Shown in pieces: positions 49,701 through 52,700 of a DNA stretch of 64,000 nucleotides. The stretch's first letter is position 1. Each line of letters starts with the position of its first letter. The notes beneath the pieces are model-generated. The model was not told where the DNA came from and did no database searches. It saw only the letters and a list, made by a program, of their open reading frames with translations. A program made the translations under genes and the position numbers. Where the stretch lies: positions 29,754 to 93,753 of the forward strand of contig CAKPJK010000001.1 in assembly GCA_934162615.1 (NCBI GenBank). Direction: 5' to 3'. Origin of the DNA: an uncultured Clostridia bacterium (GTDB taxonomy: Bacteria > Bacillota > Clostridia > TANB77 > CAG-508).

Positions 49701-52700
49701 TACTGACAAATTTAAGAACATAGAAAACATAGTGACAGTGACAGGACAATTTATGCAAAGTAAAGTATCAAATGGAATTAAAAATAGAATAGTTCCATAT
49801 GGATATGCAAAACCAGATCCGGATAATCCGGACAATCCAGATCCAGATAATCCAACTCCAGACAATCCAAATCCGGATAATCCTAATCCAGATAACCCTA
49901 ATGATCCAAGTGATAATAAAGGTACATATTCTATAAAAGGTATTGCATGGATTGATTCAGATAAAAATGGTCAAAGAGATGATGGGGAAAATGTATTAGA
50001 GGGAATTACAGTAAAACTATTTAATGCGGAAACAAATGTAATAGTAACAGATAAAAATAATAATGCATACAAAACAATAACAAATAATAATGGAGAATAT
50101 TCATTTGGAAATGTTGTAAATGGAAAATATTTAGTATTATTTGAATATGACACAGATAAATATGAATTAACAGCATATCAGAAAGATGGAATAAGTAGTA
50201 ACTTAAACTCAGATGCTATATTAAAAGAAGTTAATGTAGATGGACAGGTTAAAAATGTGGGAGTAACAGATATTGTAGAAATAAATAATGCAAATGTTTC
50301 TAATATAGATATTGGATTATTGGAAAAAGGCAATTTCGACTTAAGTGTTGAAAAATACATATCAAAAGTCACAGTAGAAACAGAAGGAAAGGCAAAAGAA
50401 TATAATTATGATAATTCTAAGTTGGCAAAAGTGGAAATTGCAGCAAAGAAAATGTCAGCTTCAAATGTAAAAGTGGAATACAAAATTATTGTAAAAAATA
50501 ATGGAAATGTTGAGGCTTATGGAACAGAAATTGCAGATGCAATGCCACAGGGATTTGAATTTGATGGAAATGAAAATAGTAGTTGGACTGTTGAGAGTAA
50601 GAAGGCTATTAATAAAAGTTTAGCAGGTGTTAAAATAAAACCAGGTGAAAGTAAAGAATTAACAATTGTGTTAACAAAAGACTTAAGTGATGGTTCAATA
50701 GGAACGGCAACAAATACAGTACAAATATCAAAATCATATAATACATCAAATTTTAAGGATAATAATTCTGATAATGATAGTTCACAAGCCCAATTAATAA
50801 TTTCTGTAAAAACAGGTATAGCAATTAAAATAGGAATAATTTTAGGAATAATCTTGGTTTTAATTGCAATTGGAATGTTAATTAAAAATAAGAAGTTTGA
50901 CAAAAATATAGCAATGATGTTAAGTGCTGCAATAATAATAGGAACAATTATTGCTGGTAGTACAAATACATTTGCTTCATTAACAGCGGGGCCAAAAACT
51001 GTTACTTTAACATATGATGATTTAGGAGGTCATAAATCTATTTCTTCAGGAGTATGGAGTGTTGTTCACCCTGGTCAACCATATTGGTGTACAACACCTG
51101 GAGGACATTTGGGAAGTTATGTTAGAGGAACGTGGACAGAAGATGGAATGACGGTGCATGGTCAATGTAGTGTTAAACATATTTATACAAAAACAGGAAC
51201 TATGAAGGTGTATACTTCTTTTGATGAATTTAGAAATTATCTTGGAAGTTCTGCATCACAAGCAAGAATATTTAAAGATTGGTTTGGTTCATCAGGTGAA
51301 GCAAGTGCTTCTGGAAGAAAGACTAAAGGCCCTACAGATAATAAATATGAAATGAAAAATGGTAAATTATTAGTGGGTCCATTCCAATATACACACTCAT
51401 TAACTAATGCGGAAGTTACAGGAAAATCTTTAAGTGTTAAAGATGGTGGAAAAGATATATCATATACAATATATAATTCAAGTAAAAGTGGTGTAATTGG
51501 TGTAGATGATATAACATCAGGTACTACATTTTATTTACTAGTTTCAACAGATGTATCAAATTTAAGTATTCAAATAAAAGAAACAGTAAAATTGACAACA
51601 ACAGAAAAGAAAGTTGGTGTAGAAGAATATACATTAACAGGACTTGCTGGAGATGGAATTTGTAAAAATACAAGTGGTGAAGAAATAGGACATAAATATG
51701 GTAGTAGTATTTCATTACCAAAAAATGGTCAACATTTGATAAGAATTGTAAAATCAGATAAGACAACAACTAGATATGATGATTTAAAATATAACTGGAC
51801 ATGGGAAGTTGAAAAAGGAAAAGTTACAGTAAGTAAAAAAGATGCGGACTCTGGAAAAGGATTGACAGGAGCAACGATGCAATTAACAGGTGGACCATCA
51901 AATTACTATAGTAAGACTGTTAAAATGACATCACCATCATATACATTTGAAAACTTGTTACCTGGTAATTATATATTAACAGAGGTAGGAGCACCAAGTG
52001 GATATAAACTTGAACTACAAACTGATAAAACAAAGAACTTAACAGTAACAGCAAATAAAACAACATCAACATCAGTAAGTAATAAACAATATGGAAATTT
52101 AAAAGTACAAAAAGTAGATAAAGATACTGGAAAACCTATAAAAGCAGTGGGATTTAAATTTAAAATATATACAACAAAAGGATATATAACAAAATATGTA
52201 AAAGGAAACCCTTCAATAGTGGTATTTGGAGCAGAAAGTAGTGCACAAGTATTTACTACTGATTCAAATGGACAATTTGAATTGGATAATTTACCATTAA
52301 ATCCAAATACATACTATGTAAAAGAAGTAGGGGTTGCAGATAGTATGAAAAATTACTATGAGGTTAAAGGAACAGTAGATGCATTTGTAGTAAACAATAA
52401 TGTAACATCTGGAACTACATATAAAAATGTTGCTAACCCACAAATTTGGGTAGATGTACAAGGATATGTATGGGAAGATATTGCCAATTCAGATAAAAAA
52501 ACAACAAGGAATGACATATTTAATACAGGAATTGACAAATTAGCTGATGGAGTAATAGTAAGATTAAAACATAGAAATGGAACAGTAATTGATACAAAAG
52601 TAACAGGAAAAGATGGAGCATATAAATTTATAAAAGTAAAAATTTCTGAACTTGGAAATTATTATATTGAATTTGAATATAATGGATTAAAATATCAATG

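Follow-up and report, generated by a model that had tools for sequence, protein, structure and literature searches.

Gene A, an open reading frame (ORF) of 2878 amino acids (aa) in a 64,000-nucleotide (nt) stretch of contig CAKPJK010000001.1 from an uncultured Clostridia bacterium (this whole stretch is hereafter called the window), consists of two adhesins concatenated in one polypeptide, and its unusual point is that the anchor-type signal of the first adhesin and the signal peptide of the second are both retained inside the protein. As judged from sequence, this architecture most likely goes back to a single old in-frame fusion of two adjacent adhesin genes. On balance, we favour the interpretation that gene A is a natural polyprotein, an old fusion which has kept both signals and would be cut after export into two surface adhesins; given the retention of an internal anchor together with an internal export signal, cleavage into two surface proteins appears to be the most likely outcome.

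Layout of gene A and its internal element

Each half of gene A, taken alone, is an ordinary fibrillar adhesin, the C-half being similar to the TIE adhesins and the N-half to adhesins with a CLIPPER stalk. The features of the gene, all on the forward strand, are listed below; the two internal transmembrane segments are denoted TM1 and TM2.

46750..55386 (+): gene A, fused two-adhesin precursor; a single uninterrupted ORF of 2878 aa plus stop, with the ribosome-binding site (RBS) aagggggatgaaatcaaATG
46750..46839 (+): N-terminal signal peptide, aa 1-30; Kyte-Doolittle (KD) peak at 13-31, predicted cut after VISIA30
46840..50802 (+): N-module, aa 31-1351; a head without assignment, then a stalk with SdrD_B and a final CLIPPER/DUF11 domain
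50803..50817 (+): SVKTG motif, aa 1352-1356; family consensus S[VI]xTG, which is the C-terminal anchor motif in split homologues
50818..50883 (+): TM1, IAIKIGIILGIILVLIAIGMLI, aa 1357-1378, predicted stop-transfer segment of the first anchor; KD 2.87, AlphaFold2 (AF2) helix at model residues 131-153
50884..50907 (+): basic loop KNKKFDKN, aa 1379-1386, predicted cytoplasmic; anchor tail merged with the signal-peptide n-region
50908..50976 (+): TM2, IAMMLSAAIIIGTIIAGSTNTFA, aa 1387-1409, h- and c-regions of the internal signal peptide; KD 2.0, AF2 helix at model residues 159-176
50998..51819 (+): head of the C-module, aa ~1417-1690, class II thioester-domain-like fold by Foldseek; predicted local distance difference test (pLDDT) ~85-95
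51088-51090 and 51730-51732 (+): C1447 and Q1661, candidate bond-forming residues of the head; invariant in 15 sequences
51817..55272 (+): C-module stalk with SpaA/CnaB-type and SdrD_B-type domains (PF17802); region 54% identical to gene B, the paralogue of gene A in the window
55273..55383 (+): C-terminal sorting signal, aa 2842-2878, VPPTG followed by a hydrophobic segment and KKKVLDK (TIGR01167)

A KD scan over 19 residues, run along the whole protein, yields hydrophobic peaks at just four places, namely residues 13-31, 1356-1374 (2.87), 1387-1405 (2.0) and 2853-2871. The outermost peaks belong to the normal N-terminal signal and to the C-terminal signal of VPPTG, membrane segment and KKK that the first-pass annotation of this DNA had described, and both hold up. 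Residues S28 and A30 of the N-terminal signal (VIS-I-A30) are invariant in an alignment of 12 homologues, and the C-terminal signal, with VPPTG as an LPxTG-type pentapeptide, passes the TIGR01167 LPXTG_anchor model at 23.9 bits (cutoff 15.9); across the family, the C-terminal motif is [IVT]P[PS]TG. Pfam places SdrD_B (PF17210, 71.4 bits) at aa 1064-1159 and CLIPPER/DUF11 (PF01345, 48.1 bits against a gathering threshold of 24.6) at aa 1235-1348 of the N-module, and SpaA (PF17802, 55.1 bits) at aa 1690-1779 of the C-module. Lately, DUF11 has been given the name CLIPPER; it is a CnaA-like isopeptide domain found in fibrillar adhesins (PMC12617251).

The two inner peaks lie in the internal element (window positions 50803-50976, aa 1352-1409), which reads SVKTG, TM1, KNKKFDKN and TM2 ending in TFA, and is followed by SLTAGPK. 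With TM1 of 22 aa and the adjoining KNKK, the hydrophobic segment and the positive tail of a sorting signal are both present, and the internal and C-terminal signals of gene A align position by position (SQAQLIISVKTG and RRAEVVIVPPTG, respectively). Other C-terminal sorting domains in NCBIfam (exosortase-type and others) do not match the internal peptide, even at E up to 10. The uninterrupted ORF with an anchor-type signal and then a signal peptide, as reported in the first-pass annotation, is confirmed (the peptide quoted there starts at Q1348 and the interval at S1352).

Three separate alignments show conservation of S1352, T1355 and G1356, with T and G invariant and S and K nearly so. The T-G pair of S[VI]xTG is invariant across ~150 sequences, down to ~28-30% identity, and the x position varies as it does in LPxTG (K, S, R, G, A, N, E, Q or T). 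The sequences of the membrane segments diverge among homologues yet remain hydrophobic, and the order of the parts is the same in 82 distinct junction sequences, a pattern that we read as selection to keep the signals. By the measure of this conservation, the internal element is far beyond chance and the frame of gene A is not an error, as gene B, 120 homologues and 28 genome loci all share it.

Origin by fusion of two neighbouring genes

A whole-protein database search listed 120 homologues (2650-3285 aa, 35-96% identity), which come from independent assemblies, some of them present on up to 25 contigs. All 120 listed homologues contain the internal hydrophobic pair at ~aa 1350-1450. A species-level genome scan found the family confined to metagenome-assembled genomes (MAGs) of uncultured gut Clostridia, for example, Clostridium sp. 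28_17 (80% identity), CAG:389 and CAG:575.

A search with aa 1160-1409 of gene A against 1.8 billion 50%-identity representatives retrieved, besides fused proteins, many proteins of ~1430-1880 aa that end in ...DDxSxAxxIIS[VI]xTG, a membrane segment and KKKVL-COOH; ~70 of the best 150 of these representatives terminate in such an anchor of S[VI]xTG, membrane segment and tail. The species-level scan, for which one genome per species was taken and a full-length alignment served as the query, gave 61 loci, and reading these at the DNA level yielded 28 fused genes and 28 split pairs, the latter being the two-gene versions divided at this point for which the first-pass annotation had proposed a search.

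In the split pairs, the N gene ends in ...IIS[VI]xTG, membrane segment, K/R tail and stop, and the adjoining C gene ends in [IVT]P[PS]TG. The distance between the two genes ranges from -20 to +48 nt (1-24 nt in most cases), the ribosome-binding sites are strong and of the GGAGG type, and the C genes open with ordinary signal peptides, that is, a K/R-rich start after M, an h-region and xxA before the cut (...NTSKA/I, ...NISSA/A and ...SKVEA/V, where the slash marks the cleavage site). At one locus examined at the DNA level (L004), gene 1 ends in ...IISIRTG-AVILYISLITTAVLTILVGVYLI-KKKVL-TAA, after which come 18 nt containing GGAAAGGAGGG and then gene 2, which starts with ATG, reads MKKKLMIFAIFMVTILGIISLKNPVEA/AIR... 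and is homologous to the C-half of gene A. The counterpart of the loop KNKKFDKN in split pairs is a tail such as KKKVL-stop followed by a start such as MKKK.... Because split relatives carry the two pieces of the internal element as a gene end and a gene start, the element is, on this piece-by-piece homology, a composite in which the C-terminal anchor of the upstream gene is joined to the N-terminal signal peptide with which the downstream gene begins. Its initial description as a C-terminal-anchor-type signal plus a signal peptide is thereby upheld; what had been missed is that the fusion is conserved clade-wide and that the window contains a second copy, gene B.

A neighbour-joining tree was built from the 200 aa that precede the motif; it is crude, being midpoint-rooted and lacking support values. 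In this tree, the fused genes all group in a single clade that lies within the split ones, and it is this confinement to one clade that points to a single old fusion. The alignments indicate that the fused element is retained through divergence to ~30% identity and through the duplication that gave genes A and B. A split pair and a fused gene stand side by side at L026, L027, L049, L055 and L061. The two halves never occur apart, being either adjacent or joined, and in every case their motifs belong to two distinct classes.

In three genes of the fused clade, the reading frame is interrupted a short way past the hairpin made of TM1, the loop and TM2. The break in L025 is an in-frame TGA in the thioester-like head (~25953-25955), and those in L012 (~4596-4672) and L013 (~14901-14944) are 1-nt frameshifts. 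These breaks could be MAG assembly errors, pseudogenes or cases of secondary fission.

Topology and the predicted internal signal-peptidase site

Over the junctions of the family, the loop between TM1 and TM2 has a mean length of 9.8 aa and a net charge of +4.75, so that the loop should stay in the cytoplasm and both large modules should be outside. The location of both modules outside the cell, as put forward in the first-pass annotation, agrees with this positive-inside topology.

The three parts of a signal peptide can be delineated in gene A (n-region KNKKFDKN, h-region IAMMLSAAIIIGTIIA, c-region GSTNTFA), and the same three parts recur in 96 junctions. Candidate cleavage sites were scored with a simple in-house rule (small residues at -3 and -1, 15-28 residues after the start of the h-region). 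At the best-scoring site, Ala occupies position -1 in 84 of the 96 distinct fused junctions, compared to an Ala background of 4.2%; the residue at -3 is V in 44 junctions, S in 23, T in 12 and A in 10, and the site mostly lies 18-25 residues past the start of TM2. Under a stricter rule that requires Ala at -1 and V, S, T or A at -3, a site is found in 73 of 94 distinct junctions, ~5-fold more than in the control, in which the c-region was replaced by random stretches of the same proteins (13.8 +/- 3.6 in 200 trials, maximum 27). The predicted signal peptidase I site of gene A, TFA1409/S1410, conforms to the AxA rule.

The internal signal peptide of gene A is not at the N-terminus, and the homologous segment of the split C genes is a true N-terminus with ATG and RBS. 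An internal translation start at M1389/M1390 is ruled out, there being no RBS and no conservation of the Met residues; the C-module therefore depends on TM2 for its export. In an AlphaFold model of aa 1227-1701 (15-sequence alignment, mean pLDDT 78), the last CLIPPER strand extends to K1354 and is followed by two helices (TM1 and TM2), a disordered c-region and a confident domain from ~aa 1417. Because the AxA-type site is conserved and a thioester-like head lies directly behind TM2, we consider signal-peptidase cleavage after TFA1409 to be likely.

The thioester-like head of the C-module

The top four Foldseek matches of the head in the PDB are chains of 6fwy and 6fwv (E 1.5e-5 to 7e-5, probability 1.0), that is, class II thioester domains of Enterococcus faecium TIE86 and Bacillus anthracis TIE. 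Thioester domains have a Cys motif [YFL]C-hydrophobic-polar and a Gln motif Q-polar-hydrophobic-hydrophobic (PMC6194298), and the contexts of C1447 (YWCTT in gene A; YFCIT, YICID and YTCVS in relatives) and Q1661 (GQHLI) fit both. The TQxx-hydrophobic-W motif is absent from the head, which has just a degenerate SQARIF, and sequence searches of the PDB with the heads of the C-module and of the N-module gave no matches. The head may represent an unrecognised subfamily of thioester domains. Between genes A and B, this region is the most variable part (14-21% identity).

In TIE adhesins, the thioester head forms the distal tip and lies directly behind the cleaved signal peptide (PMC6194298). Given this arrangement, the head of gene A would reach a comparable position only if it is cut free of TM2.

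Proposed processing and its alternatives

Under the favoured scheme, two adjacent, translationally coupled adhesin genes would have been joined in frame by a single event, in the ancestor of a clade of uncultured gut Clostridia. The first of the two would have ended in a CLIPPER domain with the anchor of S[VI]xTG, membrane segment and basic tail, and the second would have encoded a Sec signal peptide, a thioester-type adhesive head and, at its end, an [IVT]P[PS]TG sorting signal. In the fused protein, the N-terminal signal would start Sec translocation of the N-module, TM1 would stop the transfer while the basic loop remains in the cytoplasm, and TM2, acting as an internal signal peptide, would restart translocation until the C-terminal sorting signal halts it again. 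Signal peptidase I would cut between A1409 and S1410, freeing the thioester-like head, and sortase would attach the C-module to the wall at VPPT/G, with the freed C-module standing out from the wall. The N-module would be held by its own anchor, either linked to the wall if sortase cuts SVKT/G, or else bound to the membrane via TM1 and the leftover hairpin; both cuts together would leave a hairpin peptide of ~54 residues in the membrane. The outcome would be two surface adhesins delivered to the same site in a 1:1 ratio from one ORF.

Several observations weigh against this scheme. That gene A arose by fusion, that its signals are retained and that both halves are built like adhesins can be read off the genes themselves, whereas the processing that would follow is deduced from sequence, with the signal-peptidase sites scored by our simple in-house rule. 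The thioester assignment of the head draws on the fold match and two conserved residues only; aa 1410-1690 have no Pfam or NCBIfam match, and the global TM-scores of the Foldseek matches are low (0.13-0.23), because the model includes other parts besides the head. As for the internal anchor, Pro is found in the internal motif in none of the 96 fused junctions, which places it outside the LPxTG pentapeptide pattern, and nearly all characterised sortase motifs contain Pro. The SVKTG element itself scores 12.1 bits (E 0.24) with TIGR01167, below the cutoff of 15.9. The first-pass annotation had cited NVQTG as a motif accepted by sortase B (SrtB) of Clostridioides difficile, and this precedent proved wrong: recombinant SrtB cuts (S/P)PxTG peptides but not NVQTG in vitro in two studies (PMC4155245, PMC4371152), and for this reason the authors of both doubt sortase anchoring of CbpA, the protein for which NVQTG had been proposed. 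Furthermore, no sortase was detected in the window with a TLxTC-type regular expression in six frames, and none lies within 10 kb in 62 of 64 loci, linkage being judged from the 10-kb flanks of related genomes. Neither of the two neighbouring sortases that were found qualifies as a dedicated partner, as detailed next.

The regular expression, run over 67 loci, gave a single locus, L034, and Pfam context added L070; sortases do exist in this group of organisms. At L034 (20388-22399), a class B sortase lies near a split pair and is adjacent to a 363-aa substrate with an NPQTL motif. This enzyme is an unlikely partner, with its own NPQTL-type substrate adjoining and the appearance of an NPQT-specific sortase. 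At L070 (20559-22170), a TIGR01076-type, class-C-like sortase is encoded 1 kb downstream of a split pair, with a DUF6577 gene before it; it scores 59 bits, compared to the class C cutoff of 160. Close relatives of this sortase are very abundant (6864 matches) and sit beside ksgA and a penicillin-binding protein (PBP) gene. Because 60%-identical relatives adjoin ksgA and PBP in genomes without adjacent adhesins, the L070 sortase looks like a housekeeping neighbour, and its subfamily is ruled out as a dedicated partner.

The alternative with the greatest weight accepts the signal-peptidase cut after TM2 but takes S[VI]xTG to be no sortase site, so that the N-module is anchored in the membrane by TM1, together with the leftover loop and TM2, and the invariant T-G has a structural role, linking the last CLIPPER strand to the helix. 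We regard this version as credible, if on the whole somewhat doubtful. Besides the lack of Pro, the sub-threshold TIGR01167 score, the resistance of NVQTG peptides to SrtB in both studies and the absence of linkage between sortase genes and these loci, it is supported by the AF2 model, which places S-V-K inside the last beta-strand with the helix beginning right after G, and by the tails of some split genes, which are long and acidic (e.g. RKEVDNIDKNER and QKQLANLENDIFDGLL), an unusual property for sorting signals. Conversely, the invariance of T-G over the ~150 sequences is stronger than a mere linker would lead one to expect, the x position varies in the manner of LPxTG, and the accepted C-terminal VPPTG signal is laid out in the same way, likewise lying directly after a beta-strand. 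The sorting-type element, internal in gene A (aa 1352-1386 of 2878), is C-terminal in the 28 split genes and in the ~70 database representatives. Each motif class keeps strictly to its own place, S[VI]xTG following the CLIPPER domain and xP[PS]TG marking the far end, which would suit two enzymes or two fates.

For the internal anchor itself, these lines of evidence leave sortase cleavage at SVKTG and a plain membrane anchor with a conserved juxtamembrane T-G at roughly even odds. Accounting for all the steps involved, the proposition that a sortase cuts gene A at its internal sorting signal, which would be the first natural example of such an action and would yield two separately wall-anchored adhesins, is put forward tentatively, as an outcome that falls somewhat short of probable. 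The first-pass proposal of processing into two wall-anchored proteins is accordingly sustained in one part, in that the conserved AxA-type site and the thioester-like head favour the signal-peptidase cut; the sortase cut at SVKTG, with no Pro in the motif and 12.1 bits, is unproven.

Absence of any cleavage, with the protein in one piece, the TM1-TM2 hairpin as a central tether, both modules outside and only the C-terminus linked to the wall, appears unlikely. In its favour, an uninterrupted ORF is most simply read in this way, two helices are predicted for the hairpin, and internal signal-like segments sometimes stay uncut. A tether, however, needs no -1/-3 site, yet such a site is kept in 73 of 94 diverged junctions compared to ~14 expected by chance. 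Moreover, the head would be fixed at the membrane, beneath the wall, and the stalk would point outward to the wall-linked C-terminus, the reverse of the presentation in TIE adhesins, and the hairpin is never lost or shortened in the 28 species-level genes or the 120 listed homologues.

Still less probable, in our estimation, is a covalent two-part fibre, in which the halves are released and one or more sortases link Thr of one motif to Lys of the other half, as in a pilus; in one version, the product would be a thioester-tipped, wall-joined fibre of ~2,700 residues, a pilus encoded as a polyprotein, with the fusion ensuring a 1:1 supply of its parts. The constant pairing of the halves, the existence of two motif classes and the class-C-like sortase downstream of the L070 split pair are compatible with such a fibre, but gene A lacks a YPK-type pilin motif ([YFW]PK is absent), the L070 enzyme looks like a housekeeping sortase at 59 bits, and no other locus shows sortase linkage of this kind.

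Finally, an artefact whereby a missed stop or frameshift in the assembly joined two ordinary genes is effectively refuted, the probability being negligible: a few relatives (L012, L013 and L025) do have a frameshift or in-frame TGA shortly past the hairpin, but the same frame recurs in gene B, in the 120 listed homologues of independent assemblies and, at the DNA level, at 28 loci.

Comparison with known systems and implications

The C-module shares its layout with the TIE adhesins BaTIE of B. anthracis and EfmTIE86 of E. faecium (PMC6194298), namely a signal peptide, a thioester-like head, an Ig-like stalk of the cross-linked type and an LPXTG-type signal. It differs from them in that the signal peptide is internal, placed after a complete adhesin of 1,350 aa and its anchor in the same polypeptide, and in that the C-module has no sequence-profile match to known thioester-domain families. 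The N-module anchor resembles that of CbpA, a collagen-binding clostridial surface protein of C. difficile (proposed motif NVQTG), in having a polar residue followed by V-x-T-G, a membrane segment and a basic tail, with no Pro; this likeness is one of layout, and the CbpA signal is C-terminal whereas that of gene A is internal.

In the pilus of Streptococcus pyogenes, the thioester tip adhesin Cpa with VPPTG and the shaft pilin FctA with (E/Q)VPTG are encoded side by side, so that, as in gene A, a VPPTG thioester adhesin is paired with an xVxTG partner. There, each pilin has a gene of its own, and both a dedicated sortase and a pilin Lys motif are present, in contrast to gene A, which is fused, comprises very large subunits, and has neither a linked sortase nor a YPK motif. 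Another parallel is the FbcH polyprotein of Bradyrhizobium japonicum, which reportedly yields cytochromes b and c1 (Thony-Meyer et al. 1991); here, too, one ORF is said to give two proteins through signal-peptidase cleavage at a signal-peptide-like segment that follows a membrane segment. The FbcH products are respiratory membrane proteins, with no sorting signal and no wall anchoring, unlike those expected from gene A. That an internally placed anchoring signal can work with more protein behind it is indicated by the glycosylphosphatidylinositol (GPI) signal of the chimera DAF-hGH (PMC2288913). The GPI signal is a eukaryotic, transamidase-dependent analogue of the sortase signal, and DAF-hGH is an engineered construct, whereas gene A belongs to a natural bacterial family. 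In the literature searched on internal sorting signals and polyprotein sortase substrates, we found no bacterial precedent, in line with the statement of the first-pass annotation that no described sortase substrate is known to have such a layout.

By definition, sortase substrates carry a signal peptide at the N-terminus and a sorting signal at the C-terminus, and tools for their annotation and prediction assume this layout. The gene A family indicates that evolution can join two such proteins and retain the internal signals for long, as witnessed by 28 species-level genes and over 100 database clusters at identities down to ~30%. It provides a natural system in which to ask whether internal signals can be used by the signal peptidase and sortase of Gram-positive bacteria; whether the Pro-less xVxTG anchor, which commonly ends clostridial CLIPPER proteins and is debated for CbpA, is a sortase signal; and why the two adhesins must be made together, the split and fused forms serving as mutual controls. 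Proteins of the gene A type are among the largest surface structures of abundant uncultured Clostridia of the human gut. They probably carry a covalent-binding thioester head, which makes them candidates for attachment to the host or to glycans.

Gene B and the genomic setting

Gene B, located downstream of gene A, has the same internal element:

56306..64000 (+): gene B, paralogue of gene A, running off the window end; 50-54% identity to gene A outside variable regions
60392..60562 (+): internal element of gene B, SIKTG, TM1, KKNIISLKNVFK and TM2 ending in SYA/T, identified from the sequence and a KD scan

In the stretch around the internal element, genes A and B are just 14-26% identical, and the element is present in both.

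The window comes from the origin-proximal chromosome (gidA, gidB, parA, parB) of a low-GC (27%) spore-former. The tandem pair of giant genes is syntenic in relatives, in the order PGM, PP-loop ATPase, giant 1, giant 2, a 250-aa protein and dnaX. In these relatives, the conserved 250-aa protein, with an N-terminal membrane anchor, lies directly 3' of the fused giants (L001 18952-19704; L005 19535-20287); it was not found at the split-pair loci, and in the present genome it would fall past the 3' end of the window. Considered as a possible processing enzyme, this protein was found to contain no Cys and to match no Pfam or NCBIfam family.

Beside parAB, window positions 10837-24981 hold an island that encodes a HerA/TraG-like ATPase (12068-14029; PADLOC mad8, 9e-21), an ABC transporter, several ORFs without family assignment and two proteins of ~1030 aa with no family matches save a C39-like peptidase domain ending the one at 18131-21220. 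This island may be a defence or secretion module. Further along, at 25605-26201, there is a PD-(D/E)XK transposase-like ORF (PDDEXK_2) that matches profile positions 73-225 only and is probably truncated at its N-terminus.

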